DNA of 64,000 nucleotides from Oligoflexia bacterium. Its GTDB lineage: Bacteria; Bdellovibrionota; UBA1018. This document shows, piece after piece, positions 7,008 to 30,246 of the stretch. A model generated the notes under the pieces. That model was given only the letters and a program-made list of their open reading frames with translations, ran no database searches and was not told where the DNA came from. Positions within the stretch are counted from its first letter, which is position 1. Each line of letters opens with the position of its first letter. A program made the position numbers and the translations under genes. The stretch lies in NCBI GenBank assembly GCA_903881565.1, contig CAIRTR010000232.1, positions 31,796 through 95,795 of the forward strand, in the 5' to 3' direction.

Positions 7008-7471
7008 AACAGAGTCTCAAGATCCTTAAGCACTCGATCAGCATGTCCAGCCGCTCGAACTTTGGGGTAGACCTTCAGGAGAATTCCTTTTGAGTCCGCA
7101 ATAAATGTGCTTCGAATGAGTCCTACAGAAACTTTACCGTAAAGCTTCTTCTCTCCCCAGGCCCCGAGAGCCTTGATCAGACCTAAATCGGGATCGCTAA
7201 GAAGTGAAATGGCAAGGTCGTATTTTTCAACGAAGTTTTGATGAGACTCCACCGAGTCTTTTGAAAGACCTACGACACTAAACCCAAGTTTCTTGAACTG
7301 GCCAGCGAGTCTGGAGAAGTCTTTGGCTTCAACCGTACAGCCGGGCGTATTGTCTTTGGGGTAAACGTAAAGAATGATGCCTTTTTTCCCAGTGAGAGAC
7401 GATATGGTTTGTTTGTCGCCGCTTTGGTCTGGGAGTTGAATCTTGGGTAACTTTTTTCCTTCTATGAGCAT
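7004..7471 (-). CDS. bcp: Peroxiredoxin Bcp (thiol peroxidase)
   Basis: LYVYPKDNTPGCTVEAKDF carries the peroxidatic Cys motif and length and composition fit Bcp. The start is set at MLIEGKK (7471); the ORF-track start at 7507 is probably upstream. Confidence 0.85.
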   Translation of the reverse strand: MLIEGKKLPKIQLPDQSGDKQTISSLTGKKGIILYVYPKDNTPGCTVEAKDFSRLAGQFKKLGFSVVGLSKDSVESHQNFVEKYDLAISLLSDPDLGLIKALGAWGEKKLYGKVSVGLIRSTFIADSKGILLKVYPKVRAAGHADRVLKDLETLL

Positions 7472-7547
7472 GGAGGGGTTGTAAAACGAACCCACGCGCA
7501 GAAGCAAGTATCACAAAGAGTATTGCCAAAAGTTCTCAATTCAGGAG

Positions 7548-9713: not shown

Positions 9714-9769
9714 CGGTTATTATGGGGAATTTTTGAATTTTTGTGCTGTACCCAAAGCACCCCTCACGG

Positions 9770-9901
9770 TCACCTGAAGTAGTAGTCGACTAGATTCACT
9801 AGAAAAAACAGAACCCTAGATACGACGCAGAGAGTCCAGGGTTTCTGTTTAAGTTTTTCTAGTTCAATCCGACAAGAACAACAGCACTTGTTGTTTCTCA
9901 T
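9770..9901 (-). CDS. Candidate small Cys-rich ORF (43 aa), MRNNKCCCSCRIELEKLKQKPWTLCVVSRVLFFLVNLVDYYFR, in the leader of the 7548-9713 gene
   Basis: The reverse strand has a strong SD GAAAGGAGGTGATCC 6 nt upstream of ATG (complement of 9899-9901) and a TGA stop (complement of 9770-9772). It is below the 60-aa cutoff of the ORF track and could instead be part of a structured RNA leader. Confidence 0.3.
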   Translation of the reverse strand: MRNNKCCCSCRIELEKLKQKPWTLCVVSRVLFFLVNLVDYYFR

Positions 9902-10096
9902 AGGATCACCTCCTTTCTTTATTGGTAAGTCTAGTGCGACTAGATTTACCGTTGGAAGGAGGTAGTTCCTTCTACTCCGCTTGGTTTGGCGAGCACGACT
10001 TGAGCAAAAATGATGCCGAATGCGTGGCCTGTATCGATACAGGCGAATCGACCATTAGGTTACTTTAGTGCCTCCTTCTGATATAAGTTTTCCGCA

Positions 10097-14827: not shown

Positions 14828-15889
14828 CTATTTATGCTTTTTCTTGGTCTTAGAACCAACTTGGCCACCGGATTTTCGAGGCTTCAATTGTTTAAGGCGC
14901 GAAACGGCCGCTTCAAAGTCTTCTTCCACAAAACTTTTTTCATCGATTGCGACTGATCGATATTTTTCGAATTCTTGTTCAGCTTTTGCAAGAGCGAATT
15001 CATGACTAATCTTGCCGGTGTGAGAAAGGATTTCGCGATCACTTAATCGTAAGAACTCGTCAAGCCTGATAATCCAATCCTTCATGTACATCGGGCGACG
15101 CCCCTTCGCCTGAAGCTCCGCTAATTCGAGATAGGCACTGACAATACGATTGAGAGCATCCAGCTCCTCTTTTTCAAGGAAATTCTTCGCAACTGCAACA
15201 TCCGACTTCTTGGGCTTGTGACCTGTCCATGATGTGAGACCAATATTTGGCTTTGTTGCATCTACGCGCTTAACGATAACTTCCGCAGCGGTATTTCCAT
15301 GTGCTGCCCAATGCATTTTGTTTTGAAGGGTCGCAAAGAAACGTTGAGACAAGTCAGCACTTGGGTCGTAATCCACGCTTGTGGCGTAAATATCCAATAC
15401 CTTCCGCCAAAACATTTTTTCAGAAGATCTAATGTCTCGGATACGGGCTAGCAGTTCGTCAAAATAGTCAGCCCCAAGAGGTGACCCGCTTTTCAGGCGT
15501 TCATCATCGATGACAAAGCCTTTAACGAGAAGTTCCTTGAGTTGCGCAGATGCCCAGTTTCTGAACTGAGCCCCACGATTGGAGCGGACCCGGTAGCCAA
15601 CGGCTAGAATTGTATCAAGATTGTAATGATCTACTAGCCGTTCCACAGCCCTTGACGCCTCTTGTTGAACTATCCGGAATTTCCGGATAGTTGCCTCAGG
15701 ACTTAGTTCCTCTTCACGATAGATGTTTTGAATGTGCTCATTGATTGTTTTAACAGAGACTTGAAATAGATCTGCCATGAGTCGCTGAGTTAGCCATACC
15801 GTATGGTCTTCAAAGCGCACCTGGATTTTGGTTTGACCCTCATCGCTTTGAAATAATATGATTTCGCCGTGGAGTTTAACGGTTGTCAT
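14828..15889 (-). CDS. RhuM-family protein (virulence-associated, Fic/Doc-related)
   Basis: KIQVRFEDHTVWLTQRLMADLFQVSVKTINEHIQNIYREEEL...YNLDTILAVGYRVRSNRGAQFRNWAS matches the conserved RhuM N-terminal block. Confidence 0.75.
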   Translation of the reverse strand: MTTVKLHGEIILFQSDEGQTKIQVRFEDHTVWLTQRLMADLFQVSVKTINEHIQNIYREEELSPEATIRKFRIVQQEASRAVERLVDHYNLDTILAVGYRVRSNRGAQFRNWASAQLKELLVKGFVIDDERLKSGSPLGADYFDELLARIRDIRSSEKMFWRKVLDIYATSVDYDPSADLSQRFFATLQNKMHWAAHGNTAAEVIVKRVDATKPNIGLTSWTGHKPKKSDVAVAKNFLEKEELDALNRIVSAYLELAELQAKGRRPMYMKDWIIRLDEFLRLSDREILSHTGKISHEFALAKAEQEFEKYRSVAIDEKSFVEEDFEAAVSRLKQLKPRKSGGQVGSKTKKKHK

Positions 15890-16290
15890 GGTTTTCTCCG
15901 AATCCCCGCAAATAGAGTAGGAGTGACGATGGAGTTTGGGTTAAATGGGTTTGCGCTCTCAGCCATAATCTATTCTCTTTGTAATCCCAGAAGTTACACT
16001 ACTTATAGTTGGAGGTCAAAATCTTGTAGTTGGCTTATAGCTGGATCAAATGGCCCTGAGTCCACGGGCACAACAAGTTGGGGGCCAAATGAAAGGGGAA
16101 TGATTATGTGATTATGCCTCTCCTCCTGCCCCGCCATGTCTCCGCCGACACATGTTACCTTTCCCACAAAGTGATGCCTCTTGGACATCTCCTCACTCCT
16201 AGAGGCCCCAATTCAAATTTCAAATCGCCGTTTCCAAAGGCTATTTCCAGCGCAACTCACGGCACCCTTTTAGCAATATCCAACGTATCT

Positions 16291-18324
16291 ATGGCAAAAA
16301 TGAACCCTTCTCCGCTCCTCGGACTTATCATCGTATCGATGGCGGTATCAATGACCGCGTCTCTCACCGGGTCTAATGCCATAGCGGGAAATCGCCTCAC
16401 GGCAACCGATCAATTACAAAGAATTGCTAAGCCCGTAAGAGTTGGGAGCTGTTGGAAAGTCGGCGAAACACTCACTTGCGATGATCAACCGAAAACCATC
16501 GCACGCTTTGCTCACGAAAACGCCGCCGGAAAAGCACTTTCAGCGAAGTCGACAAAGAAGGTGTTGGTTTTGGTTGATCCCGCTCTTTTGAATGACGACA
16601 GTCACTGGTATTATTTTGAGAAGTTTGTCTGCCAGCTCCAAGACCGAGATGATTGCTCCGACCTTAAGAAACAATTGCGAACCCAAATTGATCAATACGT
16701 CACGGATCTGAGCAACGAAGGGATTCAGGCCTATAGACTTGATGTGGTGGCCTCAGATCCTGCTTACAAAGATCCTCAAGCGTTGAGAAACCTAATTCAC
16801 GCCTATTATAACGCTTATTCAATCGAAGGGGTCGTCCTCATCGGCAAGTTTCCCTATACGGTCGTTGTTGAGAGTTTTTGCAAAAAGGTTACCGCCTCCT
16901 CCGGCCGAACCCGATGTGTTAAGTTAGGCGATCCGATGATCTATTATACTGATACTATCTTAGGGGACATGGACGGAAACTGGGACAAGGTGTTTCACTC
17001 CGGTTCAACTGATTTTATGAGCGGGTATCAAAAAGTTTCTTTATCAAACTATTACGAAGTAAATGATGCTGAAAAATTTGGTAAAGAGTTAGCCGAGCAA
17101 GACCCGTATTTCGCCTCACCCGAAATCTGGGTCTCTCGAATCGACGCCGAAAGAGCAATCGGAGGATCATCGTTCTCGCAGAAAACAGGCGCTATTGCTG
17201 ACGAAACCTTTGTGACCGTTTATCTTGAAAAAGGAGTAGCGTATCGGCTGTTTGTTTCGAATGCGGAAAATATGGCGAGCCAAGCTTTAACCGAGGAACA
17301 ACTCCCCCTGATTCAATCACTCCACGACGCGGAGACGAACGTTCAAGTTGGCACTCTTCCCCATTTTGGAACCTCCGTTTTAACGGTGGTCAATAAGAGC
17401 GGACCTTATCAAGTGATGTTGGATGTTTCGGAGGCTCGGGGGCGTTTTGTTAAATTTGGTTCGGTACAAAAAAAGCCCTCTCTTAAAATCCAAAAGATCA
17501 CTCCTAAAAACATGAATCTTGATACGATTGTGCCTGATCAAATCATACCTATCACCACCAAAGTCAATGTGTCGGCGCCTTCATCCCCTTCAAAGGAGTT
17601 GACCCTGTATTCGAGATACTTCACCCGCAATCACGCGTTTCGGACCGGCAAGTGGAATCCGATTTCTAATATGATTCGGTTCTTTGATGGCGAATTTTTT
17701 GATTTACATCCAGATCAATTGGAGACGATTGCGAGCGCTGGGGTCACGCAGATGCCGACTGCGGCTTCGTTTAATCAGGATGTTTTCTTAAGCCAGCTCT
17801 TTGGCTTAAAAGGATATGACAAAGCGGGGATTCCGGTTTTTGGTAAAACTTATAAATATGGATCTCTCATGATTCACTCGTGGGAGGGAGGGCATGCTTT
17901 CCACGATAAACCAGAGGGAAGTGAAAACCAAACGGTTAGCATGAGCACGCTGATTCAACTGAGCGAGGAAAACACGCCTGCGAATATTCTATTTTTCATC
18001 AATCACGGTTGTATTAATTCGAACATTGACCCGTTTTTCGGATACCCCGATACCGGTTCGGTCTATCTTTTTCGATTCGGCGGATTGGTTCACTTTGGCT
18101 TAGCCTCGCTGGGTGGGAACGGTTTTTATCAAAAAGTTCCCGAGACCTTTTCCAAGGGTGGAGACGCGGGCACGGGATATCTCAATTCGGTACGCATGCA
18201 GGAGGCTTTCATTACAGAGAGCATTAAGAAGAATGGCGACAATGACCAACTCTTTAAGAAACGCTCATATTTCACGGTTCTGCTTGGCGATGGGACACTC
18301 TTGAGCGACTACGGGAGCAAGTGA
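16291..18324 (+). CDS. Large secreted hypothetical protein (about 678 aa)
   Basis: The likely start is MAKMNPSPLLGLIIVSMAVSMTASL (signal peptide) at 16291; the ORF-track start (GTG at 16108) lacks signal-peptide character. It contains HSWEGGHAFHD and FFINHGCINSN segments that might be a His/Cys dyad, which is speculative. Confidence 0.65.
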   Translation: MAKMNPSPLLGLIIVSMAVSMTASLTGSNAIAGNRLTATDQLQRIAKPVRVGSCWKVGETLTCDDQPKTIARFAHENAAGKALSAKSTKKVLVLVDPALLNDDSHWYYFEKFVCQLQDRDDCSDLKKQLRTQIDQYVTDLSNEGIQAYRLDVVASDPAYKDPQALRNLIHAYYNAYSIEGVVLIGKFPYTVVVESFCKKVTASSGRTRCVKLGDPMIYYTDTILGDMDGNWDKVFHSGSTDFMSGYQKVSLSNYYEVNDAEKFGKELAEQDPYFASPEIWVSRIDAERAIGGSSFSQKTGAIADETFVTVYLEKGVAYRLFVSNAENMASQALTEEQLPLIQSLHDAETNVQVGTLPHFGTSVLTVVNKSGPYQVMLDVSEARGRFVKFGSVQKKPSLKIQKITPKNMNLDTIVPDQIIPITTKVNVSAPSSPSKELTLYSRYFTRNHAFRTGKWNPISNMIRFFDGEFFDLHPDQLETIASAGVTQMPTAASFNQDVFLSQLFGLKGYDKAGIPVFGKTYKYGSLMIHSWEGGHAFHDKPEGSENQTVSMSTLIQLSEENTPANILFFINHGCINSNIDPFFGYPDTGSVYLFRFGGLVHFGLASLGGNGFYQKVPETFSKGGDAGTGYLNSVRMQEAFITESIKKNGDNDQLFKKRSYFTVLLGDGTLLSDYGSK

Positions 18325-18662: not shown

Positions 18663-19232
18663 ATGGCAAATGTAGTTACAAAAGAAACAGTCGTTAGAAA
18701 AGTGAAACACCTGGCAACGATTCTGGGGCTCGCCACCTTGGCGCTTTCGCTCACAAGTTGTGGACCTGTCGCACCGAGTGTGGACAAGTCCCAGTTCCTG
18801 GCTTCGCAAAGCGCGACTTCAGGTCCTCAAGTCAACAGTGACCTGTTCTCGATTCAAGTGCTACCGGTCAAGACTCAGGTTCTCAACATGGAAAACACCG
18901 CAGGCGCCCTTAAAGACACGACTGACATTATCAAAGTCGTAAACTTCTCCAAGAACGCCACTTCAGGCGGCTTAAGTGATTTTTCAAACTCCGGAAAAAT
19001 GAGCTTCGAACTCTCCTTTGATGGACTCCCTGCAAAGCAGGTCGTGGCAATCATCAAGACCAACAAAAGTTCCAGTGAAATTTCGTCGTTAGGCTTCGAC
19101 GCTGCTCGCCTCTCCCTTAAACAAACCGGCGAAACAAAGTGGAGCTTGTCGCTCGCCGCAGGCACTGCAGCAGAACTTGCAACAGCTATCCAAACAGAAG
19201 CCGTTGAGATCACCTTAGCGTTCACTCGTTAA
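18663..19232 (+). CDS. Lipoprotein, hypothetical
   Basis: Signal peptide with lipobox ...LALSLTSC-G. SD GAGGA lies 6 nt before ATG. Confidence 0.7.
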   Translation: MANVVTKETVVRKVKHLATILGLATLALSLTSCGPVAPSVDKSQFLASQSATSGPQVNSDLFSIQVLPVKTQVLNMENTAGALKDTTDIIKVVNFSKNATSGGLSDFSNSGKMSFELSFDGLPAKQVVAIIKTNKSSSEISSLGFDAARLSLKQTGETKWSLSLAAGTAAELATAIQTEAVEITLAFTR

Positions 19233-20147
19233 TTAAAGGCTTCGCCCCCTCAAGAGATCCTTGACCACGCCATACATGACTTCAGGTAAGGACTCCAGAT
19301 GCGGAACTTCCCGCATTACGCCTTTGCCTTTTTGCGCAAGCTCTCGACACAGCTCATAGCTTGAGCGCTCTTTACCCATTTTTAAGACTACAAGGTGCGG
19401 AAACCGGTGTGCAAGATACGCAGGATCTCTCCCTGCGGTGTATTTGCCATCAGACAAAAGGACGGTAGAGGGTGGCTTCCGCGCCGCCCCTCGAATGCGA
19501 CGTCCCTTACCGCCTGATTGAATCAATCCAAGCGCGCACTTCATCCCCTCTTCAAGATGTGTGTAGCCTTGCGCCGGAACATCCAAGAATCTCTCAACCA
19601 ACTGCTGAATCGTGATTCGCTCATCAGGGCGCTTCAAAACTTGCGCTTCGTTTTCAAAGGCCACGACTCCGATGGGATCCTCTGGGAACTGTAACAAGAC
19701 CACCGCAACCGCCACCGCGGTCAGCGCCAGTTTCTCACCCGTCATCGAAAGACTTGTATCCACGCACAAAATCACAGACTGCGGCCGGTGCTCTGGATAG
19801 GTCATCCAGATTTTATCGGCCGAAGCTATGCCTTTGCCCGCAATATCGGGTGAATCCTCAAGGGTCATTTCGAGTTCGATCTCGGCTCGGTCTGCATGGG
19901 CGCCTAAGTCACTCAGCAGTTCCGTTTTCTGCTCCTCCGGATGAACCACCGAACCCAGGATCTCTCTCGCGCGCGCGAGAATCGCATTCGCTGAAATCCG
20001 CCTCAAGCCCTTCGCGAGATTTTGAAGCGATGGCGTGTTCTTAAACTCATGGTAACGAGTGGCAATATCCCAGGCGCTCATCGCCTCAAGCGTTGGGTCA
20101 AGATCTGCAGGCGAAAAATCAGCTCCGGCCAACATCTCAGGCGACAA
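19233..20147 (-). CDS. von Willebrand factor A (VWA) domain protein
   Basis: The MIDAS motif ILCVDTSLSMTG (DxSxS) is present. It lies immediately downstream of a MoxR-type ATPase gene, the classic MoxR-VWA pairing. Confidence 0.8.
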   Translation of the reverse strand: MSPEMLAGADFSPADLDPTLEAMSAWDIATRYHEFKNTPSLQNLAKGLRRISANAILARAREILGSVVHPEEQKTELLSDLGAHADRAEIELEMTLEDSPDIAGKGIASADKIWMTYPEHRPQSVILCVDTSLSMTGEKLALTAVAVAVVLLQFPEDPIGVVAFENEAQVLKRPDERITIQQLVERFLDVPAQGYTHLEEGMKCALGLIQSGGKGRRIRGAARKPPSTVLLSDGKYTAGRDPAYLAHRFPHLVVLKMGKERSSYELCRELAQKGKGVMREVPHLESLPEVMYGVVKDLLRGRSL

Positions 20148-20218
20148 AAAGCGCGGTTCTTCGGGAGAACCGGTCGCCGCTTTATCCCAGAAAATGGATC
20201 TAAATTTACTGGAATCCG

Positions 20219-21142
20219 TTAGCGCTTTTTTTTTTGATTGCTCGGCTCAGCACTCATTGGCCCCGAAAGCACCTTTTGAATCGCTTCGCGCAAGAAATCC
20301 TCAAACTCATTTTTTGAATTTTCGGCTGCTTCGGCATTAGGCTCAAATTCAATTCGATTTGGGAGAGCTAAAAGAGCGGCCTCAAAAAAGGATTCCTCAA
20401 AAGCACCTGCTTTTTGGAGCAGGACCACCCATAACTCCGCCACCGCCAAGGCCGCCCTTACCGAGCCTCCTCGACGAACCAGGGGATGCCCTCGAGTCAA
20501 ACGTACTAAATCCACCGCGTGACCAATGATCTTTTCTTTGATCTGAGCCGCGACCTTCTTTGCGCCGGGTTGCCTTGCGAGGTTTGCGCGCACAATCTCA
20601 CGCTCGTCATCTGAGGTCTGGTAGTCGAGCACCACCAACTCAAAACGATCCATGATCGCTTCGCTCAGATGCGAGGTAGCCACAAACTCTTTTGGATTTT
20701 GGGTTGCGACCACCAAAAAACCTGGCTTCGCCCGCACTTCGCCAAAACGAGGAACCACCACAAGTCGCTCATCCACGGCGGGCAGAAGAATGTTCTGCAC
20801 CCCTTCAGGGAGGCGATTGAGTTCATTAATAAAGAGCACGCCGCCCGCCTTCATCGCTTCGACAAGAGGGCCCGGGATAAAGGCCTCTTTTGAAAACCCC
20901 TTCTTCACGACCAGTGGAGGATCGAACCAACCCGAAAGCTTATGCTCCGAATAGCGCGCGTCCCCATCAATCCGAAAAACAGGAACTCCCAGCTCGTGAC
21001 AGACTGCAAGCGCCAGATGCGTTTTACCTACGCCTACAGGTCCTTCAATAAGGACGTTGCGACCCGCCTCAAGACACGCGCGAACGCGTCTGAGTTCTGC
21101 TTCGCGTCCAATGAGCTCTGGGATTGCCCGAGTGGGTTTCAT
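20219..21142 (-). CDS. MoxR-family AAA+ ATPase
   Basis: Walker A GPVGVGKTH, Walker B VLFINELNR, and the typical MoxR length of 307 aa. Its start overlaps the kamE stop (ATGA). Confidence 0.9.
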   Translation of the reverse strand: MKPTRAIPELIGREAELRRVRACLEAGRNVLIEGPVGVGKTHLALAVCHELGVPVFRIDGDARYSEHKLSGWFDPPLVVKKGFSKEAFIPGPLVEAMKAGGVLFINELNRLPEGVQNILLPAVDERLVVVPRFGEVRAKPGFLVVATQNPKEFVATSHLSEAIMDRFELVVLDYQTSDDEREIVRANLARQPGAKKVAAQIKEKIIGHAVDLVRLTRGHPLVRRGGSVRAALAVAELWVVLLQKAGAFEESFFEAALLALPNRIEFEPNAEAAENSKNEFEDFLREAIQKVLSGPMSAEPSNQKKKR

Positions 21143-21960
21143 TTAGTTTTGCCCTTTTTCTTGGCGGCGGGCTTCTTCGCCTTGGCCTTCACGGGTTTTT
21201 CCTTACGCCTTAACAGCTCATCCAAAATATAGCCCGCAACTTCAGAGGGCTTCGTGCCGACCCCAAAACCTGCGTCGAAGCCACACTCCAGCGCCATGGG
21301 ATGCGTGAGTCGTGGCCCCCCCGAGACAAATATCATCTTATCGCGCAAGCCCGCCTTCTCCGCGCGCTTAATAAGATCCTTCAAATCACGAATGTGAATA
21401 TTATGTTGGGTTACAACTTTAGAAACCAAAATCGCGTCGGCCCCTTCGCGCTCCGCGATTTTGAGAAGCTCCTCATTGGGAACTTGCGCTCCTAGGTTCT
21501 TGGCATCAATCCATTGATAGCGCTCAAGGCCGTAATCGCCTGCAAAACCCTTCATGTTAATAATAGCGTCAATGCCCACGGTGTGGGCATCATAACCGGT
21601 ACAGGCGCCAAAGACTTTGAGCTTGCGGCCAATTTTGGTGCGAATCTCTTCATCGATTTCGTCGCGTCCCCGTTTTTTGGAGTCAACTTTAAGAACCTTG
21701 ATCTGCGTAAAATCGATGGTGTGCTTGAGGTTTCCGTAAACCACAAAGAACGCAAAACCCTCGCCCGCCTTTTCCATCGTGGCGACCTTGATTTGTTCAT
21801 AGCCCATTTTCTGAACGAGCAGGACCGCAGCTTCGCGCGCTTCGGGAGAAGGCTCCACGGGGAGTGTGAAGGCTAGTTGGACGGTTCCATCCCCTTGGAT
21901 ATCGCCGTAGGGCTTTAGTTTCTTGAGGTCAGGTTTCGCAGTTTTGGATAATGTTGCCAT
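21139..21960 (-). CDS. kamE: Lysine 5,6-aminomutase beta subunit (cobalamin-binding)
   Basis: B12-binding DxHxxG motif GYDAHTVGID in a Rossmann-like domain. It is about 270 aa, as in KamE, and adjacent to the alpha subunit. Confidence 0.75.
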   Translation of the reverse strand: MATLSKTAKPDLKKLKPYGDIQGDGTVQLAFTLPVEPSPEAREAAVLLVQKMGYEQIKVATMEKAGEGFAFFVVYGNLKHTIDFTQIKVLKVDSKKRGRDEIDEEIRTKIGRKLKVFGACTGYDAHTVGIDAIINMKGFAGDYGLERYQWIDAKNLGAQVPNEELLKIAEREGADAILVSKVVTQHNIHIRDLKDLIKRAEKAGLRDKMIFVSGGPRLTHPMALECGFDAGFGVGTKPSEVAGYILDELLRRKEKPVKAKAKKPAAKKKGKTK

Positions 21961-21976
21961 TTCTATTTCCTATTTC

Positions 21977-23545
21977 CTAAAGCAGCTCAAAAAACGGATT
22001 AAGGTAACCCTTGTCCCGCTCGATCACTCCGTCATAGCCTTTTCCACCCGTTTCAGTCCGACTCACTTCGGCAAAAGCCCGCTCTTCAATTGCTTTGAGA
22101 AGGCCTTTAGCTTGAATCATTTCGAGGTGCGCCAAGGTGTCTGTGAGAACTTTTTGCGCCCACTCTGAAATCACCCCGTGAGGTTTGTACTCAATTTCTC
22201 GGCCCAGGTCTTTTGCACCATTGAAAATGTATTTGGCGTTCTTGATGCTCATCCAACGATCCTGCAGAAGGGGCGTGTGCATCGCCTCAGTCGGCATTCC
22301 TAAGAGTTGAATCGTTTGTCCGGTCAAGACCCCGACAAAATTGAACATGGCATCCATCAAGTGACTGTAAAAAATATCACCGCACTTAAATCGCGTCGGC
22401 GGCATGAACTTGATCGGGGCTTCAGGGAAAATGTCGCGAGTCATTTGCGCGCGCGCGATCTCCTTTAGAAATACGTTAGGATGCTCTGGATCCATCTCCT
22501 GCGCATGGCCTAAACCCATGAGATGAGGCTGCATGAGGGCATTGAGCGCGAAACGCTCATTGATAAATTGAGAGGCCAAAACCTGATGCCCATTTTCAAT
22601 CGCGTCCGCGGTGGTGAGGTAGTTGTCCTCGCCTGTGTGAATCACAATCTGGGAGAGCGCGATGATTCTTCTCGAAAAATGCTGGTCCACCAGCGTGCGC
22701 TTGGGATTGATATCCCGAAAGAGAATTCCGTACATGGCGTCGTTAAGCAGGAAATCCAGGCGCTCCAGCGCGCCCGCTGCCGCAATCTCCGGCATGCAAA
22801 GGCCTGAGCAATAGTTCGTGAGTCTCAGATAGCGACCCAGCTTCTGGCCTTCGTCATCTAAAGCCTCGCGCATGATTCTAAAATTGGCCTGCGTGGCATA
22901 GGTTCCGCCAAAACCCTCAGTTGTCGCTCCATGCGGTACATAATCCAATAGCGATTGAGCCGTGCTTCTGATGACCGCTATGGCATCGGCACCTGCTTGA
23001 GCTGCGGCCCGGGCTTGGACCACATCTTCATAAATGTTTCCGGTCGCAACGATGACATAAATCAAGGGACCATTTTTTCCGGTCGGATCAAAAGGGTCGT
23101 GAAGTTTTTTGCGAAGCGCATCTCGCTGTTCGCGGCGGGCAATTAAAGTTTCAACGCTCTTTTGCGCGAGCTCAATTGCTTTTGCGGCAACTTCTTTATC
23201 ACTCGCACGAGGCAGCGTGAGAAGATTGATCTTGCGATTCGCAACCACTGTCGCGAGCTCCGGGGCAGTCATCTTCTTTTGGATCATGCCGTTTACAAAC
23301 CAAGAGAGCACGCCTTTGCCCAAAGCCTTCTCTTTATGTAGATCTTCGACGATGACATTCACCTCGGGGAAAAACTGCCCCTGCGATTCACGAACAGCGC
23401 CCTCAACACCCAAAAGCCGCAACACTGCGCGCTCAATAGCGACTGTGGTGTTTTTTGCGATCATCCCAGAGATCGGAACCGCAATTCGCTCCGCCAGCTC
23501 TCGGCAGCGATCAATGAGTCCCGTATCAAGTTGAAGATGTGCCAT
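21977..23545 (-). CDS. kamD: Lysine 5,6-aminomutase alpha subunit (PLP-binding TIM barrel)
   Basis: 522 aa. Length, overall composition and position next to the B12-binding beta subunit and kdd fit KamD. Confidence 0.75.
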   Translation of the reverse strand: MAHLQLDTGLIDRCRELAERIAVPISGMIAKNTTVAIERAVLRLLGVEGAVRESQGQFFPEVNVIVEDLHKEKALGKGVLSWFVNGMIQKKMTAPELATVVANRKINLLTLPRASDKEVAAKAIELAQKSVETLIARREQRDALRKKLHDPFDPTGKNGPLIYVIVATGNIYEDVVQARAAAQAGADAIAVIRSTAQSLLDYVPHGATTEGFGGTYATQANFRIMREALDDEGQKLGRYLRLTNYCSGLCMPEIAAAGALERLDFLLNDAMYGILFRDINPKRTLVDQHFSRRIIALSQIVIHTGEDNYLTTADAIENGHQVLASQFINERFALNALMQPHLMGLGHAQEMDPEHPNVFLKEIARAQMTRDIFPEAPIKFMPPTRFKCGDIFYSHLMDAMFNFVGVLTGQTIQLLGMPTEAMHTPLLQDRWMSIKNAKYIFNGAKDLGREIEYKPHGVISEWAQKVLTDTLAHLEMIQAKGLLKAIEERAFAEVSRTETGGKGYDGVIERDKGYLNPFFELL

Positions 23546-23568
23546 AACAATTACCTTCCCAAAAAAGT

Positions 23569-24624
23569 CTAAGTGTACTGCTGCGTGAAGATTGCCTTAA
23601 GCTCTCGGTTTTCACGAACAAGATTTAAAGCCAGATCCGCGTGTCCCTCTGTGTAGCCATTGCCGATTCGCAGATCGACATCCGCGCCTACTCCTTCAGC
23701 GCCCAATGCTGCGCGCGTGAAGCTTGTGGCCATGCTAAAATAGTAGACGATCCCTTTTGGGCGACAGGAGAGCACGCACGACATCTCGGTTTCTGGAATG
23801 TTAGCGACGTTAATCACCACATCTCCCATATGCCCCCGAGTCGCGGACCAGACTTTTTCCATGACCTCTACTGCATTGCGAGCATCGGCTTGAATCACAT
23901 CGTCAACAAAGGAGAGTTCCTTGAGCCTGGCAATGGCCGCATCCGAATAGTCCACGGCAATTGTTCGCACGCCTGGTTTTCGCTTCGCTTCAGCCAGACA
24001 CAGAATTCCCGATTTTCCGCCGCCTCCGATCACGACCACGGTTTGATTCGCCTTCACCAACTGACGCGTTTGAGCAGGCGCACCGGCCACGTCCAAAATA
24101 GCGAGTGCAACCGTCTCCGGAAGATCGTCGGGAAGCTTTGCGAAAATCCCTGAGGCAAACAAAATGGCGTGTCCTTCGATATCGACACGATCAATCTTGG
24201 TGTGAATCTTTTTAATTTTTCGAATTTGAAGCGGCGTCAGCGATAGCGAAACGAGGGTGGCGATTCGATCGCCCACAGAGACGGGTTTTTCTTTAAGTGG
24301 AAAAGAGGGCCCGATTTGGGTCACGCGCCCGATGAGCATTCCTCCGGATCCCGTAACGGGATTGTGGTGCTTGCCTCTTTTGGCGACAAGTTCGAGAATA
24401 TGTTTTTCGATTTTGCCGGGATCGCCGCCGCAGGCTTCCGAAATTTGATGAAAACTTGCGGAATCAATGTTCAGGCTCTCCACCTCAATCAACAACTCGT
24501 CTTCAGCGATCGGGAGAGAGGGGTCTAGGGCATCGGCCTGCTGGGGCAAGAGGCTACGCTTTAGCCCTGGAGTCTGTATAACCCTTTGAATTCCTAATGG
24601 ATCTGCCTGTCTTAACTTTGTCAT
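23569..24624 (-). CDS. kdd: L-erythro-3,5-diaminohexanoate dehydrogenase-like NAD(P) oxidoreductase
   Basis: 351 aa with Rossmann motif VVVIGGGGKSGI. It is the first gene of the kamDE operon, as in lysine-fermentation clusters. Confidence 0.65.
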   Translation of the reverse strand: MTKLRQADPLGIQRVIQTPGLKRSLLPQQADALDPSLPIAEDELLIEVESLNIDSASFHQISEACGGDPGKIEKHILELVAKRGKHHNPVTGSGGMLIGRVTQIGPSFPLKEKPVSVGDRIATLVSLSLTPLQIRKIKKIHTKIDRVDIEGHAILFASGIFAKLPDDLPETVALAILDVAGAPAQTRQLVKANQTVVVIGGGGKSGILCLAEAKRKPGVRTIAVDYSDAAIARLKELSFVDDVIQADARNAVEVMEKVWSATRGHMGDVVINVANIPETEMSCVLSCRPKGIVYYFSMATSFTRAALGAEGVGADVDLRIGNGYTEGHADLALNLVRENRELKAIFTQQYT

Positions 24625-24950
24625 TTTCGGTCACCCGTCCCTTCGCGCGCTCGGTATTTTCACCTATATTATTGAGTATTATTGAGGACTTCCACTCTTC
24701 TTTTTGATTTCGCAGCTTGGCTCGGGTTTTTGCCCCGCGTAAATGCCTAATTTATTGACAGCTAATTGGAGGAATGACACCCCTTGCAGGTTTTTGAGAA
24801 ACCGGTATTAATTCAAGTGCTCGTAATTAAAGTGGTTTACACGTTACAGTGCGGTGCATTAAATTGGCCCACACCTTGCTCTTAATCCCATTGAGACCGG
24901 AACCTTGGAAGGTATCCCGGCTCATTTGAACCTCAGCCAAGAGGCTGAAG

Positions 24951-26696
24951 TTGAGGAGTAGATTTATGAGTATTGCGAAAAAATGTCACACCTTTGGTAA
25001 GTCACTAATCATCGCGGTGGTGCTGGTTAACTTGGTTCCATTCTCAGCACTGGCAAAACCCTTAACCAAGGCACAGAAGATCGCTGCAGCCAAAAAGGCG
25101 AAGGCGCTGGCGGCACAGAAGCTAACAGCACCTCAACCTGCCGCAATTGCCGCACCTGACGCCGTGACCAAGGCCGAGCTTCAAAAAGCATTGGATGAAA
25201 AAGCGACGCAAATTGTAAGCGCAGTTGAAGCAACTTTAAAAAGAGAGCGTGAAGCAGCGGTTGCCGCCGCTGCCGCAGAAGCCGCAAAACGCGCTCCTGC
25301 CGTTGCAGCCAAGTCTGAGTCCCCTGCTCTCCCAGCTGCTGGCCCTCAGTCAGCAGCTTTACCTGCTGCCGCCGCCAAGGTCGAGCCCGCAGCAAAAGCC
25401 CCAAAGTTTGATGAACTCACAATGGCCGAAATCCCTGGCGCGTTTCTTAATTTTCAACTCGTAGAGGAGAACGCTTCAACCGCCGGTTCCAAAGCCACCT
25501 TTTTCGGAATGGTTTTCGATGATTGCCAAGGCTTCTTCGATATTCAAAACACCTCTCTGAATAGAGATATCTCTACCGACAGCTCTGCCCCGAACGGCTC
25601 TTCGATTGGATTTTCGATCCGTGACGAAGACGGCAAGGGACGAGCCTGCATGAGAAAACATAAATTAGCGGGCGATGTTTGCGGCAAGACCGCGCCTTTG
25701 ACTTGCTCTCGTCTTTCCAGAGTCTATCCCGGTGCTACTTTCGATATGACTGCCGAAAAAGACGGTACCCCTCGTCTGTGTCACCTTGATCCAAACAACG
25801 ATCTCACCCCGCTGATTTGTGAAGACTTCAGCCCCGCTCTCCCTAAGCACCTCACGCTCAAGACGAGACGGGATCTCAAATTGCGGGCAGCAATCGCGAA
25901 TAACACGAGAATCACGGAGACTTGCCGAGGCAATTTAGACGAACTCGCCCAGGCTCGTGAGGCGGCTGACAAACTTCTCGACCTCAAAGTTACTCAGGAT
26001 GTCGTGGACAGAATCAAAAAAGAACTCGACGCTGCTGAAAAGGCGCTGAACGCGAAGAAAACTTCCGATGATCTCGCGTCCCTCACCTCTCGCGTGAAAA
26101 AAGCAACGATTGATGACCTCGAGTCCCTCCGTGAAGAACTTGGCGCATACGCTAAAGCTAACCCAGAATCTGGAGAGAAACTTGCGCCCCTGTATCACGA
26201 TATCGCACTCAAGTACGTCAACCGCAAGAATGCCGACGGCCCTTCTTTCCAAGCTGCTTCTGACACTTTAGCCGAAGCCGGTGAGCTCTCGGGTCTGAAA
26301 CCTCAGACTCAATTACGACTTGAAAACTACCAACTCGACCTTGCAGTCGGCAACGTTCAGACACTGGGACAGTACGGAGTGCAGAACAACTACATGTTCT
26401 ACCCTGCTTACTACTCGCTGATGAACGACCTTCAAACTAAAGCGATGTCCTCTTGCAGCGGCCCTTACGCAAGCCAAGAAGCCTGCGCAAGTGTGATGAC
26501 GGCGTCACGAGCGGCTTCACAGATTCCAGTAAAGGCGCAGCAAATTGACCAACAACGCATGCAAGTCCAGCAACAAATGCAACAAGCCATGGGCGCAGGC
26601 GGAATGACGATGCCGATGAATGGCGGAATGGCCGGCCCTTCAGGCGGAATGGGCGCAGGACTTGGCTTCGGATTCGGCGCACAAGGACGGATCTAG
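24951..26696 (+). CDS. Secreted hypothetical protein, Ala-rich N-terminal region and Gly/Met-rich C-terminus
   Basis: The signal peptide (…SLIIAVVLVNLVPFSALA) has an alternative start at MSIAKK (24966). It has low-complexity AAAKKAKALAAQK / AAVAAAAAEAAKRAPAVAAK repeats and a C-terminal GAGGMTMPMNGGMAGPSGGMGAGLGFGFGA. Confidence 0.65.
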   Translation: MRSRFMSIAKKCHTFGKSLIIAVVLVNLVPFSALAKPLTKAQKIAAAKKAKALAAQKLTAPQPAAIAAPDAVTKAELQKALDEKATQIVSAVEATLKREREAAVAAAAAEAAKRAPAVAAKSESPALPAAGPQSAALPAAAAKVEPAAKAPKFDELTMAEIPGAFLNFQLVEENASTAGSKATFFGMVFDDCQGFFDIQNTSLNRDISTDSSAPNGSSIGFSIRDEDGKGRACMRKHKLAGDVCGKTAPLTCSRLSRVYPGATFDMTAEKDGTPRLCHLDPNNDLTPLICEDFSPALPKHLTLKTRRDLKLRAAIANNTRITETCRGNLDELAQAREAADKLLDLKVTQDVVDRIKKELDAAEKALNAKKTSDDLASLTSRVKKATIDDLESLREELGAYAKANPESGEKLAPLYHDIALKYVNRKNADGPSFQAASDTLAEAGELSGLKPQTQLRLENYQLDLAVGNVQTLGQYGVQNNYMFYPAYYSLMNDLQTKAMSSCSGPYASQEACASVMTASRAASQIPVKAQQIDQQRMQVQQQMQQAMGAGGMTMPMNGGMAGPSGGMGAGLGFGFGAQGRI

Positions 26697-27147: not shown

Positions 27148-28677
27148 CTAATCCAGTCCTGGGTACTTTTTAAGCGTCGCCGGCGGCTCCGGGATTTCAA
27201 TCGACGTGACCGGAATCATGCAATACATCGCTGAAAAAAGCGCCGTCGCATAGTGGTTTCCGCTCTTTTTAAGCCCGCCAAAAGGCAACTTCGAAGAGCC
27301 TCCCACGGTCGAGCGATTCCAGTTGATCAAACCCGTTTCGAGTTCAGAGACGCATTTTTCAAACACGCTCCGGCTCCTCGTAAACACGCTTGAAACCAGA
27401 CCGTATTGAGTGGCGTTTGCAAGCGCAAGCGCGTGATCAAGATTGTCGGTGGTCAAAATCGCGGCATTAGGACCAAAAATTTCGGTCTGCTGATAAACGC
27501 TTTTCAAGGCTGCTTCGACCGAGTTTTCGGAAACCATGCAAATCGAGGGGGTCACATAATTGGCCCCGGAACCCTTTACGCCTTCAACTTCTATGGATTT
27601 TCCGCGCATAATCACTTCGCACTTTTCGCGAGTCGCGATCCCAATGAACTTCATGTAGCGATCAACCGCTCCCTGATCAATCATGGGGCCCATAAAGGGC
27701 TGATTCAGGGGATGTCCAATCGTGAAGGTCTTCGCACGCTGGTGAAACCGAGACAAAAACTGATCCAGCAGGTTTTTATGAACGATAATCCGACTGGTCG
27801 CCGTGCAGCGCTGGCCAGCGGTGATAAACGCGCCCACTAAAGTTTCTTGAATGGCATATTCGAGATCGGCGTCTTCCCACACAATCGCCGAATTTTTTCC
27901 ACCCAATTGAAGCACCAGGAGCTTCCAGTGCTGCTGAAGCGTTTCCTGCTTAATACGGGTCCCGACTTCAAAGGAGCCCGAAAATAAAACCCCCGCGACA
28001 TCGGGATGCGCACAAAGCCTTCGCCCCACTTCACGCTCGCCTTGCACCAGATTGAAAACGCCGGGTGGAAATCCCGCCTCCTCAAAGCACTCCGCTATCA
28101 CTTGACCCACAAAGGGAGTCTTTTCGGAGGGCTTCAGAACAACCGTGTTGCCCGAAGTGATGGCGGGAACAATATGTCCCAAGGCGACGCTTCCTGGAAA
28201 ATTAAACGGGGTGATGACTGCTAAAACCCCCAACGGTCGATAACGGGTGACTCCAGCGATGTCTCCATCGGAAACTGAAAGCGCGATCTCTTTGGGCGCA
28301 CGATTCGCGTCATCAAGGGCAAATTTAACTTTTCCCAACATCGATTCAAATTCGGTCTCAGACTCCCATAGCGGCTTGCCTGTCTCACGAGAGATAACCT
28401 GAACAAGAGCCTCGTGCCGCGCCTCAAGCGCCGTCTTAAGCTTGGAGAGATAATTCCCTCGTGTGGCCGAATCCGTTTTCTTCCAGGTCTGGGACGCCTC
28501 GCGGGCACTCGCAACGGCATTTTCAATCTGGCGGTAGGAATAGGTGATTTTTGCAATCTCGTCCAAGGGGTCCGCGGGGCTACGTGCTACCCACTCGCCA
28601 CTCGGATCCGTGGTGACCTCGAAAATGTTCCGCACAAAACTTCCGCGATAATACAATTTATTCCAGGCTTGTGTCAT
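27148..28677 (-). CDS. Aldehyde dehydrogenase, succinylglutamate-semialdehyde dehydrogenase (AstD)-like
   Basis: 509 aa with ALDH catalytic blocks GGKNS, TAGQRCT, EIFGP, and the AstD-like C-terminus LPFGGLKKSGNH...LKKYPGLD. Confidence 0.7.
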   Translation of the reverse strand: MTQAWNKLYYRGSFVRNIFEVTTDPSGEWVARSPADPLDEIAKITYSYRQIENAVASAREASQTWKKTDSATRGNYLSKLKTALEARHEALVQVISRETGKPLWESETEFESMLGKVKFALDDANRAPKEIALSVSDGDIAGVTRYRPLGVLAVITPFNFPGSVALGHIVPAITSGNTVVLKPSEKTPFVGQVIAECFEEAGFPPGVFNLVQGEREVGRRLCAHPDVAGVLFSGSFEVGTRIKQETLQQHWKLLVLQLGGKNSAIVWEDADLEYAIQETLVGAFITAGQRCTATSRIIVHKNLLDQFLSRFHQRAKTFTIGHPLNQPFMGPMIDQGAVDRYMKFIGIATREKCEVIMRGKSIEVEGVKGSGANYVTPSICMVSENSVEAALKSVYQQTEIFGPNAAILTTDNLDHALALANATQYGLVSSVFTRSRSVFEKCVSELETGLINWNRSTVGGSSKLPFGGLKKSGNHYATALFSAMYCMIPVTSIEIPEPPATLKKYPGLD

Positions 28678-30173
28678 ATACAGGTTTTCTCGATGAGTTT
28701 TTCGTAGAATAGAACGGCTTTTTCCAACTCTTCTATCAATACATGTTCATTAGGACCATGAGCGTTGCCGCCCGAAAGCCCAGGACCAAATCCAATAGCT
28801 TCATAACCCGCCTGAAAGAACTGTGCCGCTTCACTTGAGGAGGACTGTTTATCGAAGTGCGGCTCCATTCCTGCGGCGGCCATCGCTTCGCGACATTTCA
28901 AAATCAAGGGTTGCTCGGCATTCATTTGGAGACCTGAGTTCAACTTAACCCGCCCAAAATTAATATTGAGACTGGGATAGCTTGCCGCAATTTTTTGGAC
29001 ACCTTGTTGTACGGTCTTTTCCATTTCCTCTGCGAAGGTTCCGGGCAAGAACCGGGCGTCAAACTGGAGCTCCAGGCGCCCTGGCTTTTGAATCAGACGG
29101 CCAAAATTGAGCGAAGAATAGGGAGGCCGATAAGCATCGTCACGGGACTTCGTGAGCTCCTCCGCCGAGATCGTGAAAAACCGAAGGACCTCGAGAAAAC
29201 AGGGGAAAAGCGTATCGGGTAAAAAACGAATCCCCGTATCGCCTGCTCCTCCAAATTCAACCCGAAAAGAACTGCGCGGCAGGGTGGGGTCCACAGCGGC
29301 GTCCGGCTTCGCGACTTCTCGAAAAAACCGTTTGAAGTCTTCAAATTGATGTGAAGTGAGATAGAACTGAATCAAGGAATGATCAGGAACTTTCGAAACG
29401 GTATCGCCGCCTTCAAAGTAGGTAAAACGAAGATCAAACCCGCTTTCGATCGTACGATCCACGAAGTTAACGCCTTCATGAATAGCGTTCACGCCTTTTT
29501 CTGGAAAGGCCCCGTGCGCAGAGCGCCCAAACGTATGCAGATCAATACGGCGATTAAAGCCGCGCGCATCTCGTTCGATTTGCTGGTAATCAATTGTGAG
29601 TTTAAAGGTATTTACGGCTTTGTGCTCAAAAACAACCTTGAGCTCTGACGGCTCTCCCACTGCCACATAGGAAGGATTCAGAATATTTGATTTGATGAGA
29701 TATTTAATTCCAAAATTCCCCAACTCTTCGCCACAGCTCCCTACGAGATACAGCGGCATTCGAAGCTTCTTCTCGCGAAACTTGGTCACTGCCCTTAGCT
29801 TGCAAAGAAAATCAAGCTTGCCATCGGCGGAACCCAATCCAAAAATTTTTCCGTCTCGAACCACAGCCTGAAAAGGATCGCCTCCGGTTTCCGTCCATCC
29901 GGTAAGAAGACCGGGCGTCACGGTATCAAGGTGAGTTGAAAGCAAGAGGCCTTTGCGTATTTTTCTATCAACAAGGGGATCGCCGAGGACACCCACCACA
30001 TTAAACTGCCGCTTGGAGACCCCCTCAAAAGAATGGGTCACCTGCTGAAGGGTCGACCGCAAACCTCGGTCCGTCATCATGGTAGAGACAAAATTGGCGA
30101 TTTCTTCGTTACCATCGCCGCTGACGGAGCGAATCTTAATGAGTTGCTTAGCGTCTTCTAGAAGTCTTTTCAT
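28674..30173 (-). CDS. M20-family metallopeptidase/deacylase (ArgE/DapE-like)
   Basis: HLDTV metal-binding motif, GSADGKLD, and GPG..GG.AHGPNEHV near the C-terminus. It overlaps the astD-like start by 4 nt. The start is set at MKRLLEDAKQLI (30173). Confidence 0.75.
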   Translation of the reverse strand: MKRLLEDAKQLIKIRSVSGDGNEEIANFVSTMMTDRGLRSTLQQVTHSFEGVSKRQFNVVGVLGDPLVDRKIRKGLLLSTHLDTVTPGLLTGWTETGGDPFQAVVRDGKIFGLGSADGKLDFLCKLRAVTKFREKKLRMPLYLVGSCGEELGNFGIKYLIKSNILNPSYVAVGEPSELKVVFEHKAVNTFKLTIDYQQIERDARGFNRRIDLHTFGRSAHGAFPEKGVNAIHEGVNFVDRTIESGFDLRFTYFEGGDTVSKVPDHSLIQFYLTSHQFEDFKRFFREVAKPDAAVDPTLPRSSFRVEFGGAGDTGIRFLPDTLFPCFLEVLRFFTISAEELTKSRDDAYRPPYSSLNFGRLIQKPGRLELQFDARFLPGTFAEEMEKTVQQGVQKIAASYPSLNINFGRVKLNSGLQMNAEQPLILKCREAMAAAGMEPHFDKQSSSSEAAQFFQAGYEAIGFGPGLSGGNAHGPNEHVLIEELEKAVLFYEKLIEKTCI

Positions 30174-30246
30174 TTTTCTATGAGATATCACGCGCTTATT
30201 TTTGTTGCAAGGAAACCACACCCTTCGCTAACCTAGATAAACAGCG

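Follow-up and report, generated by a model that had tools for sequence, protein, structure and literature searches.

The stretch analysed here, referred to as the window, comprises 64,000 nucleotides (nt) from an Oligoflexia bacterium (GenBank assembly GCA_903881565.1, contig CAIRTR010000232.1, positions 31,796 to 95,795 of the forward strand), and the system in question is a set of five genes packed on its minus strand (24624..19233), in which the genes for lysine 5,6-aminomutase (kamD and kamE) are followed by those for a MoxR-type AAA+ ATPase and a protein with a von Willebrand factor A (VWA) domain. The layout of open reading frames (ORFs) gives the order kdd, kamD, kamE, moxR and vwa, and the features of the locus are as follows (aa, amino acids):

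23569..24624, minus strand: kdd, first gene of the operon, 351 aa, 3,5-diaminohexanoate dehydrogenase family (NF052381, 248 bits)
21977..23545, minus strand: kamD, 522 aa (NF052384, 751 bits; Pfam PF09043, Lys-AminoMut_A, 749 bits)
21139..21960, minus strand: kamE, 273 aa, with OAM_dimer and B12-binding domains (NF052385, 338 bits)
21142..21204, minus strand: polybasic C-terminal tail of KamE, residues 253-273, of the type RRKEKPVKAKAKKPAAKKKGKTK, lying beyond the NF052385 core and ending in the ATGA overlap with moxR
20219..21142, minus strand: moxR, 307 aa, CbbQ/NorQ-like MoxR AAA+ ATPase (Pfam AAA_5, AAA_3)
19233..20135, minus strand: vwa, 300 aa, with a C-terminal VWA domain and an intact MIDAS (Pfam VWA_2)
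20154..20172, minus strand: terminator-like hairpin between moxR and vwa from the terminator scan, probably fortuitous
24625..24950, no strand assigned: intergenic region of 326 nt between kdd and a divergent gene for a 581-aa protein, presumed from the ORF layout to be the promoter region of the operon

The gene identities given in a preliminary description of this DNA were confirmed by these NCBIfam and Pfam matches, and the spacing of the genes could be read directly from the sequence: kdd and kamD are separated by 23 nt, kamD and kamE by 16 nt, and the stop codon of kamE shares four nucleotides with the start codon of moxR (ATGA, 21142..21139), as had been described, an overlap of the kind associated with translational coupling. 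The interval from the moxR stop to vwa on the same strand, previously put at 70 nt, is 71 nt to a TTG start (20147, giving 304 aa) or 83 nt to an ATG start (20135, giving 300 aa), the latter being where public gene calls place the start of vwa. From the overlap and the short gaps we infer that the five genes are probably co-transcribed. Scanning the window for consensus promoters and terminators gave results no better than shuffled sequence (10 terminator-like sites against 9.5 expected from shuffles), and no convincing sigma-70 match was present in 24625..24950, which is presumed from its position to be the promoter region. Related loci that were compared with the window carry labels from L001 onwards and were each viewed over +/-10 kb: the hairpin between moxR and vwa is not conserved, having a weak counterpart in 12 of 78 such loci and none in the closest relative (L001), and its possible use as a device to set the stoichiometry of the two proteins was rejected. 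The surroundings of the operon are those of an ordinary chromosome, with flagellar genes, the glycine cleavage system, ATP synthase, PBP1 and proline dehydrogenase in the window.

All three enzyme genes score above the equivalog cut-offs of their NCBIfam families (200 bits for NF052381, L-erythro-3,5-diaminohexanoate dehydrogenase; 600 bits for NF052384; 280 bits for NF052385), and KamD also matches the solved enzyme (1xrs/8t0v/9q1a) with 569 bits. KamE retains the B12 motif DxHxxG together with a lysine 11 residues past the histidine (DAHTVGIDAIINMK, starting at residue 124; residues 131-144 of canonical KamE), and this DAHTVG...K motif is kept in 60 of 62 relatives. In the 1xrs structure the histidine is the cobalamin ligand (base-off/His-on) and the lysine binds pyridoxal phosphate (PLP), and the retention of both residues suggests that the proposed client is a working enzyme. 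Beyond this core, most KamE proteins linked to MoxR carry low-complexity tails rich in Lys, Arg, Pro and Ala, between 3 and more than 100 aa in length (21 aa for window KamE and upwards of 100 aa for that of L062; also L003, L010, L012, L034, L058 and L069 among others), whereas in KamE linked to KamB and KamC (see below) the chain stops about 3 aa past the conserved core. Window KamE is alone among 46 ORFs of at least 200 aa in having at least 7 Lys/Arg residues in its last 15 positions, and the C-terminus of MoxR reads KKK(K)R. The polybasic tail of KamE could be a handle for the ATPase, or unrelated to it.

For the MoxR protein, Pfam gives AAA_5 with 73 bits (cut-off 22) and AAA_3 with 48 bits, and the motifs GPVGVGKT (Walker A), ATQNP (sensor 1), DRF (arginine finger) and RRGxSxRAA (sensor 2) are invariant, both in 14 of 14 and in 80 of 80 proteins compared. 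The Walker B motif reads [ILV]NE in 80 of 80: the catalytic glutamate is kept, and the Mg-binding aspartate is replaced by asparagine (N106 in the window, 20825..20827, minus strand). Among solved proteins, midasin AAA modules, NorQ and CbbQ come closest in sequence; for the AlphaFold2 (AF2) model (pLDDT 85.4), the top 21 matches in the PDB are all NorQ or CbbQ, with NorQ from NorQ-NorD complexes matched at E 3e-17 (TM 0.67/0.80, about 22% identity) and CbbQ at E 3e-16 (6l1q; 5c3c also matched). As judged from motifs and model, the protein is a single-module AAA+ ATPase of the MoxR kind with one non-canonical motif.

The VWA protein (Pfam VWA_2, 42 bits) has an intact MIDAS of the pattern DxSxS...T...D (DTSLS, T192 and D229 in the window), which is kept in 72 of 72 relatives, and wherever a locus extends far enough downstream, moxR is followed by vwa. 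A comparison of its sequence alone with the PDB returned no useful match; its AF2 model (pLDDT 85) predicts an N-terminal helical/beta region of about 115 aa followed by a minimal VWA fold, with two additional strands (residues 67-73 and 110-116) N-terminal to the latter, and top matches of the model include the NorD VWA domain (E 6e-9) and the Rea1 MIDAS domain. The alignment with NorD VWA constructs spans about 280 columns. No curated NCBIfam family covers either protein, the top match being GvpN with 79 bits against a cut-off of 267. Convergent to vwa lies a 189-aa ORF (18663..19232, plus strand) whose stop abuts that of vwa; it has no family match, and a homologue with 66% identity occupies the same position in L001.

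The preliminary description had suggested comparing the neighbourhoods of kamDE across genomes for recurrent linkage to moxR-vwa, and such linkage was indeed found. Relatives of MoxR fall into more than 120 database clusters at 60-79% identity, and the clusters named by taxon are all labelled Bdellovibrionota, Bdellovibrionales/Bdellovibrionia or Oligoflexia, save one that also bears the label Methylotenera sp. and one labelled only 'bacterium'. Three sampled homologues (62-79% identity) all lie in kdd-kamD-kamE-moxR-vwa cassettes with differing flanks. A scan of GTDB at one genome per species with the MoxR alignment then yielded 142 relatives, and among the best 80, which were used here (47-79% identity), nearly all are labelled as Bdellovibrionota taxa, four having other or broader labels. 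In the tblastn map of these loci (77 with readable context, 5 too short), kamD and kamE stand immediately upstream of moxR-vwa in 62 of 77 cases, again with varied flanks; in 39 of 69 loci moxR has a possible start codon that shares four nucleotides with the kamE stop, and in the majority of the remainder the gap is at most 30 nt. In most related loci kdd lies upstream of kamD. Seven deep lineages (L076, L080, L083, L085, L086, L091 and L092) keep kamD-kamE-moxR-vwa without kdd, at identities to the window of 51-59% for KamD, 49-53% for MoxR and about 30% for VWA, and in one of these (L080) the kamE-moxR overlap is also 4 nt: the conserved core is therefore kamD-kamE-moxR-vwa. In L088, moxR-vwa is flanked by kamE and by kce, which comes two genes further along the pathway. 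The linkage far exceeds what chance would give, and the operon is chromosomal, syntenic and vertically inherited. Thus, kamDE-moxR-vwa is a real module found across the phylum Bdellovibrionota, and one that is undescribed, as the preliminary description had supposed: no paper in the searchable literature was found to link lysine 5,6-aminomutase with MoxR, and PMC3149608, which deals with kam genes, does not discuss accessory factors.

Lysine 5,6-aminomutase is subject to a suicide inactivation that depends on its substrate, and its classical preparation required E2 as a second protein, together with ATP and a thiol. In order to see which accessory genes accompany the canonical enzyme, we reached two canonical clusters through Firmicutes homologues of the sequence of the solved enzyme. 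The gene order there is 4HBT protein - kce - (CoA transferase) - kdd - kamA - 341-aa protein - MutS_V protein of about 500 aa - kamD - kamE, and NCBIfam names the two products encoded directly upstream of kamD as KamB (NF052386, 'lysine 5,6-aminomutase reactivase subunit') and KamC (NF052383, 'reactivase ATPase'), with scores of 398-618 bits; kamC overlaps kamD. KamC is an ABC-type ATPase with MutS domain V, and KamB has no Pfam match in the precomputed locus annotation and no match in the PDB; for neither did we find a solved structure. We found no open-access paper describing KamB/KamC as a reactivase, and the role of KamBC is taken from the curated names together with the E2 and ATP requirement of the classical enzyme preparation.

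When KamA, KamB, KamC, Kce and a 4HBT-type candidate for Kal from the two canonical clusters were used as tblastn queries, none gave a match in the 64-kb window at E<=1e-3, and KamA, KamB and KamC were undetectable by tblastn in 88 Bdellovibrionota loci. The Pfam scan of window ORFs of at least 150 aa revealed no MutS_V, GlmL/MutL, EutA or DdrA-type protein, and the MoxR and VWA proteins match neither NF052386 nor NF052383. Both earlier statements, that kamA, kce and kal are missing from the window and that it contains no canonical reactivase, hold for these searches. The relation between the two gene pairs became apparent from a metagenome scan with the KamD alignment: among 80 kamD loci, 51 have KamB and/or KamC upstream of kamD and 7 have MoxR-VWA downstream of kamE, none has both pairs, 4 have neither despite full flanks and 18 could not be assigned. 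In a neighbour-joining tree of KamD, all MoxR-linked sequences form one clade that is sister to the rest (the deepest split), which would mean that a single change of the accessory pair took place where the Bdellovibrionota KamDE lineage begins, with inheritance alongside the enzyme thereafter. A third type of kamDE locus was also encountered, in which an ORF of about 180 aa without Pfam match lies between kamD and kamE (L104 6976..7515, L118 9754..10305, L149 10804..11343, L170 9557..10090) and neither KamBC nor MoxR-VWA is nearby; these loci are nested in the KamBC clade of the KamD tree, and L149 also has a DUF362/4Fe-4S protein there.

The integrity of the motifs and the likeness to NorQ and CbbQ make MoxR-VWA look functional and of the client-remodelling kind. 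Taken together with the operon structure, the conserved linkage and the mutual exclusivity with KamBC, this suggests that MoxR-VWA may be a chaperone or reactivase of KamDE, a client-specific remodelling machine that fills the role of KamB/KamC in Bdellovibrionota, and we give this reading an even chance of being correct. The interaction of the pair with KamDE, the identity of the client and the choice between reactivation and maturation are the parts of it that we infer. The preliminary description had already put forward MoxR and VWA as a substitute for the reactivase, and those points of its argument that could be checked all held: the conserved linkage and the exclusivity with KamBC now add to that suggestion, the function itself remains at the level of a proposal, and the unlinked loci described below (15 of 77) speak against it.

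The mechanism that we envisage follows NorQD, in which one VWA adaptor sits on a MoxR hexamer with a finger in the pore, the MIDAS binds carboxylates of the client and ATP-driven twisting remodels it (PMC9976466, PMC13036017). As in NorQ/NorD and CbbQ/CbbO, the MoxR hexamer would carry one VWA adaptor, the metal site of the adaptor MIDAS would dock on an acidic residue of KamDE, and ATP-driven motion passing through the adaptor would open the B12-binding beta subunit, such that damaged cobalamin could leave and fresh adenosylcobalamin bind; alternatively, the cofactor might be loaded in this way at first assembly. A more far-reaching version holds that MoxR-VWA is a fourth, structurally unrelated class of B12 reactivase, next to the Hsp70-like DdrAB/EutA type, the G-proteins of the MeaB type and the MutS-like KamBC, and that it took the place of KamBC when the KamDE lineage of Bdellovibrionota arose; MIDAS docking and AAA+ twisting would pry the cobalamin-binding subunit open and eject inactive cobalamin, with the lineage-specific polybasic KamE tail as a handle: this we put forward tentatively, as a version with the balance tilted against it.

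NorQ/NorD, which serves the insertion of FeB (non-haem iron) into cytochrome-c nitric oxide reductase, gives the strongest structural matches to the two window proteins and resembles them in combining a single-module AAA+ protein with an intact-MIDAS partner encoded beside the client enzyme. It differs in that the proposed client here is a soluble B12/PLP enzyme, with exchange of an organic cofactor rather than metal insertion into a membrane enzyme; furthermore, the window VWA protein has 300 aa and lacks the large N-terminal domain and linker of NorD, and the MoxR protein has NE in place of DE in Walker B and only about 22% identity to NorQ. CbbQ/CbbO is conceptually closest in its job, since it uses ATP to remodel inhibited Rubisco so that a tightly bound inhibitory ligand leaves. 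Its CbbQ fold matches that of the window MoxR (6l1q, 5c3c), whereas CbbO has about 770 aa compared to 300 aa for the VWA protein, and the client differs. KamB/KamC shares with MoxR-VWA the presumed client and the form of a two-gene, ATPase-containing pair abutting kamDE, the two being mutually exclusive, but there is no kinship in sequence or fold, and KamBC is encoded upstream of kamD rather than downstream of kamE. DdrAB/PduGH, GdrAB and EutA (Hsp70/ASKHA-like) and the MeaB/CblA G-proteins likewise depend on ATP or GTP, are encoded beside a B12 enzyme and release damaged cobalamin or gate its loading; their folds are unrelated, none being AAA+/VWA, and none was detected in the window scans. 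RavA/ViaA, CobS/CobT and BchI/BchD, finally, pair a MoxR-type or related AAA+ protein with a VWA partner, with RavA binding a lysine enzyme that depends on PLP and CobST taking part in the biosynthesis of B12; RavA differs by its extra domains, and the chelatases need CobN/ChlH, which is absent here among the ORFs scanned, and their family scores lie far below the cut-offs.

Several observations weigh against KamDE being the dedicated client of a working MoxR-VWA motor. The Walker B asparagine is present in all MoxR members, and ATPase competence is thus not assured. KamBC could sit elsewhere in these genomes, beyond the +/-10 kb viewed per locus and the 64-kb window, and some kamDE loci in the KamBC clade are without any adjacent accessory gene, so that adjacency is not obligatory. 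In a comparison of distance matrices (mirror-tree), KamDE did not stand out from the other neighbours and the candidate partners could not be told apart: r is 0.83 between MoxR and VWA, and the correlations with KamD, KamE, Kdd and EtfQO range from 0.63 to 0.74. Furthermore, 15 of 77 genomes (L021, L025, L060, L063, L066, L067, L071, L072, L074, L077, L079, L081, L082, L084 and L087) contain a full-length moxR-vwa pair with all motifs and have no kdd, kamD or kamE within 10 kb, whereas a strictly dedicated factor should vanish with its client, unless kamDE has moved elsewhere in the genome. Finally, a convergent cluster of electron transfer flavoprotein (ETF) genes is found 0.03-3 kb downstream of vwa, both in linked loci (33 of 40) and in unlinked ones (8 of 11), and is thus as syntenic as kamDE.

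The unlinked loci are dispersed on the MoxR tree, a distribution for which at least 8 independent events have to be assumed, and kamDE is lacking from all members of a small clade formed by L067, L071, L072 and L074. In several of them exactly kdd-kamD-kamE is missing between otherwise syntenic neighbours: in L021, L025 and L060 a dehydrogenase of the ELFV type (Glu/Leu/Phe/Val), the gene for which elsewhere precedes kdd, abuts moxR, and in L077 it is the divergent gene of the 581-aa type that directly abuts moxR. A search for kamDE relics by tblastn (E<=10) in the 3 kb upstream of moxR in unlinked loci gave noise only. At positions conserved in at least 95% of linked MoxR proteins, 6 unlinked proteins are essentially unchanged and 9 show 5-10 changes, compared to at most 4 in the deepest linked lineages, a measure that is confounded by divergence; this pattern points to an unlinking that is recent in some cases and to a changed constraint in others. 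The drift of MoxR lineages long separated from kamDE counts in favour of KamDE as the client. We also considered a different B12-dependent client in these loci and rejected it as a general explanation, as only the clade of L071, L072 and L074 has a B12-binding radical SAM gene (with a NUDIX gene) upstream of moxR, and the remaining unlinked loci share no common neighbour. In L071 these genes occupy 7451..9989, L074 being likewise arranged and L072 a sister, and the NUDIX stop codon overlaps the moxR start; the clade has high GC content and is labelled Deltaproteobacteria. This arrangement may be a second cobalamin-protein context for the MoxR family, or a coincidence.

These findings lead to the rival explanation that survives best, namely that MoxR-VWA serves one or more other clients in an island of amino acid catabolism, either an EtfD/ETF-QO-like protein with ETF or the ELFV-type dehydrogenase, and that its adjacency to kamE reflects mere operon packing. 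The ETF cluster consists of genes for an EtfD/ETF-QO-like Fe-S protein with Fer4 and CCG domains (about 657 aa) and for ETF alpha and beta (for example L003 9912..13688 and L006 10763..14590, with about 40 other loci). The synteny of this cluster, the persistence of moxR-vwa without kamDE in 15 genomes and the ELFV-type dehydrogenase abutting moxR in three of them all fit such a client, as does the correlation of MoxR distances with EtfQO (r 0.74), which is slightly above that with KamD or KamE (0.65); furthermore, MoxR-VWA pairs are best known for the maturation of metal centres (PMC9976466). Against this stand the opposite strand, the variable distance and the variable intervening genes of the ETF cluster, and its absence from the window, from the deep kamDE-moxR-vwa lineages L076, L080, L083 and L088, and from L067, L071 and L072. 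ETF genes also neighbour the canonical kam cluster of Clostridium (L090), which fits synteny at the level of the pathway because lysine breakdown feeds acyl-CoA dehydrogenase and ETF: we read the ETF cluster in this manner, yet regard it as a legitimate rival client. The ELFV-type dehydrogenase is found in only about 28 loci, no other neighbour shares a stop/start overlap of the kamE type, and the exclusivity with KamBC would stay unexplained by a different client. We therefore judge this explanation to be rather unlikely, with a chance of about one in four in our estimation.

It is also conceivable that MoxR-VWA acts on KamDE in another manner, regulating or scaffolding the enzyme through its oligomeric state, sequestration or inhibition, in analogy to the RavA-LdcI cage in Escherichia coli. 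The linkage evidence for this is the same as for the reactivase, the RavA-LdcI system offers a precedent for a MoxR ATPase bound to a lysine-metabolising PLP enzyme (PMC6987120), and the variable polybasic KamE tail could be the docking element. RavA is absent from the 50 best-ranked PDB matches, however, where NorQ and CbbQ are nearest, the 307-aa MoxR protein is without the LARA domain of RavA, and the positional replacement of KamBC, an annotated reactivase, argues for repair or maturation, so that we consider a regulatory or scaffolding role improbable. That the pair is an anti-phage conflict module or a motor of the cobalt/magnesium chelatase type with the aminomutase only as a neighbour is very improbable: for all that both proteins show weak similarity to the putative cobaltochelatase TIGR02442 (E 1.7e-9 and 4e-5), CobS and BchD/BchI, that the JGI auto-annotation names the VWA protein 'Mg-chelatase subunit ChlD' and that a RhuM-family gene lies 3 kb away, PADLOC returned nothing meaningful (P-loop-local matches of at most 24 bits for MoxR, none for VWA), no CobN/ChlH-like large subunit was found among the ORFs scanned in the window or in the scanned loci, the TIGR02442 scores are 37 and 22 bits against a cut-off of 779 with all chelatase scores far under their cut-offs, and the operon is a chromosomal, syntenic one that is inherited vertically.

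The genes around the operon were also compared between the loci. Upstream, the window encodes the divergent 581-aa protein without family match (24951..26696, plus strand) and, with a 4-nt overlap, a peptidase M20 and an aldehyde dehydrogenase (27148..30221, minus strand); all three genes are syntenic upstream of the operon in many relatives, in some of which a gene for an AstA-type arginine N-succinyltransferase is inserted among them, and together they suggest an island of amino acid catabolism. The ELFV-type dehydrogenase (about 350 aa) is encoded directly before kdd in, for example, L006 (3477..4538) and L088 (5494..6546), and is also present in L021 (8895..9950). No kamA was detected near any of about 70 Bdellovibrionota kamDE loci, and in combination with the ELFV-type dehydrogenase this suggests that lysine may be broken down by a route other than the classical fermentation pathway. 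On the downstream side, directly next to the operon and where most relatives have the ETF cluster, the window has genes for a RhuM-family protein (14828..15889, minus strand, 372 bits) and for a 738-aa protein with a weak match to peptidase C25 (gingipain-like; 16108..18324, plus strand), which looks like a local rearrangement or insertion.

To our knowledge, MoxR-VWA pairs are abundant in bacteria and few of their clients are known, these being Rubisco, nitric oxide reductase, CO dehydrogenase and LdcI or fumarate reductase. Both the client and the task proposed here are new for proteins of the MoxR/VWA kind, and the reactivase function as such is known from the unrelated families KamBC, DdrAB/GdrAB/EutA and MeaB. 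If the proposal is correct, MoxR-VWA pairs would gain a novel kind of client in a B12/PLP radical enzyme, and their role would widen from metal insertion and inhibitor release to the exchange of a large organic cofactor, and the suicide inactivation of lysine 5,6-aminomutase would have found an independent solution. The action of KamBC and of MoxR-VWA on orthologous enzymes would then constitute a natural experiment on the mechanical needs of a reactivase, and the system is directly testable, as it is small and soluble (307 and 300 aa plus KamDE) and present in cultivable Bacteriovorax. For the organisms themselves, our findings hint that predatory bacteria, probably relying on scavenged corrinoids, run a lysine pathway without kamA near these loci.

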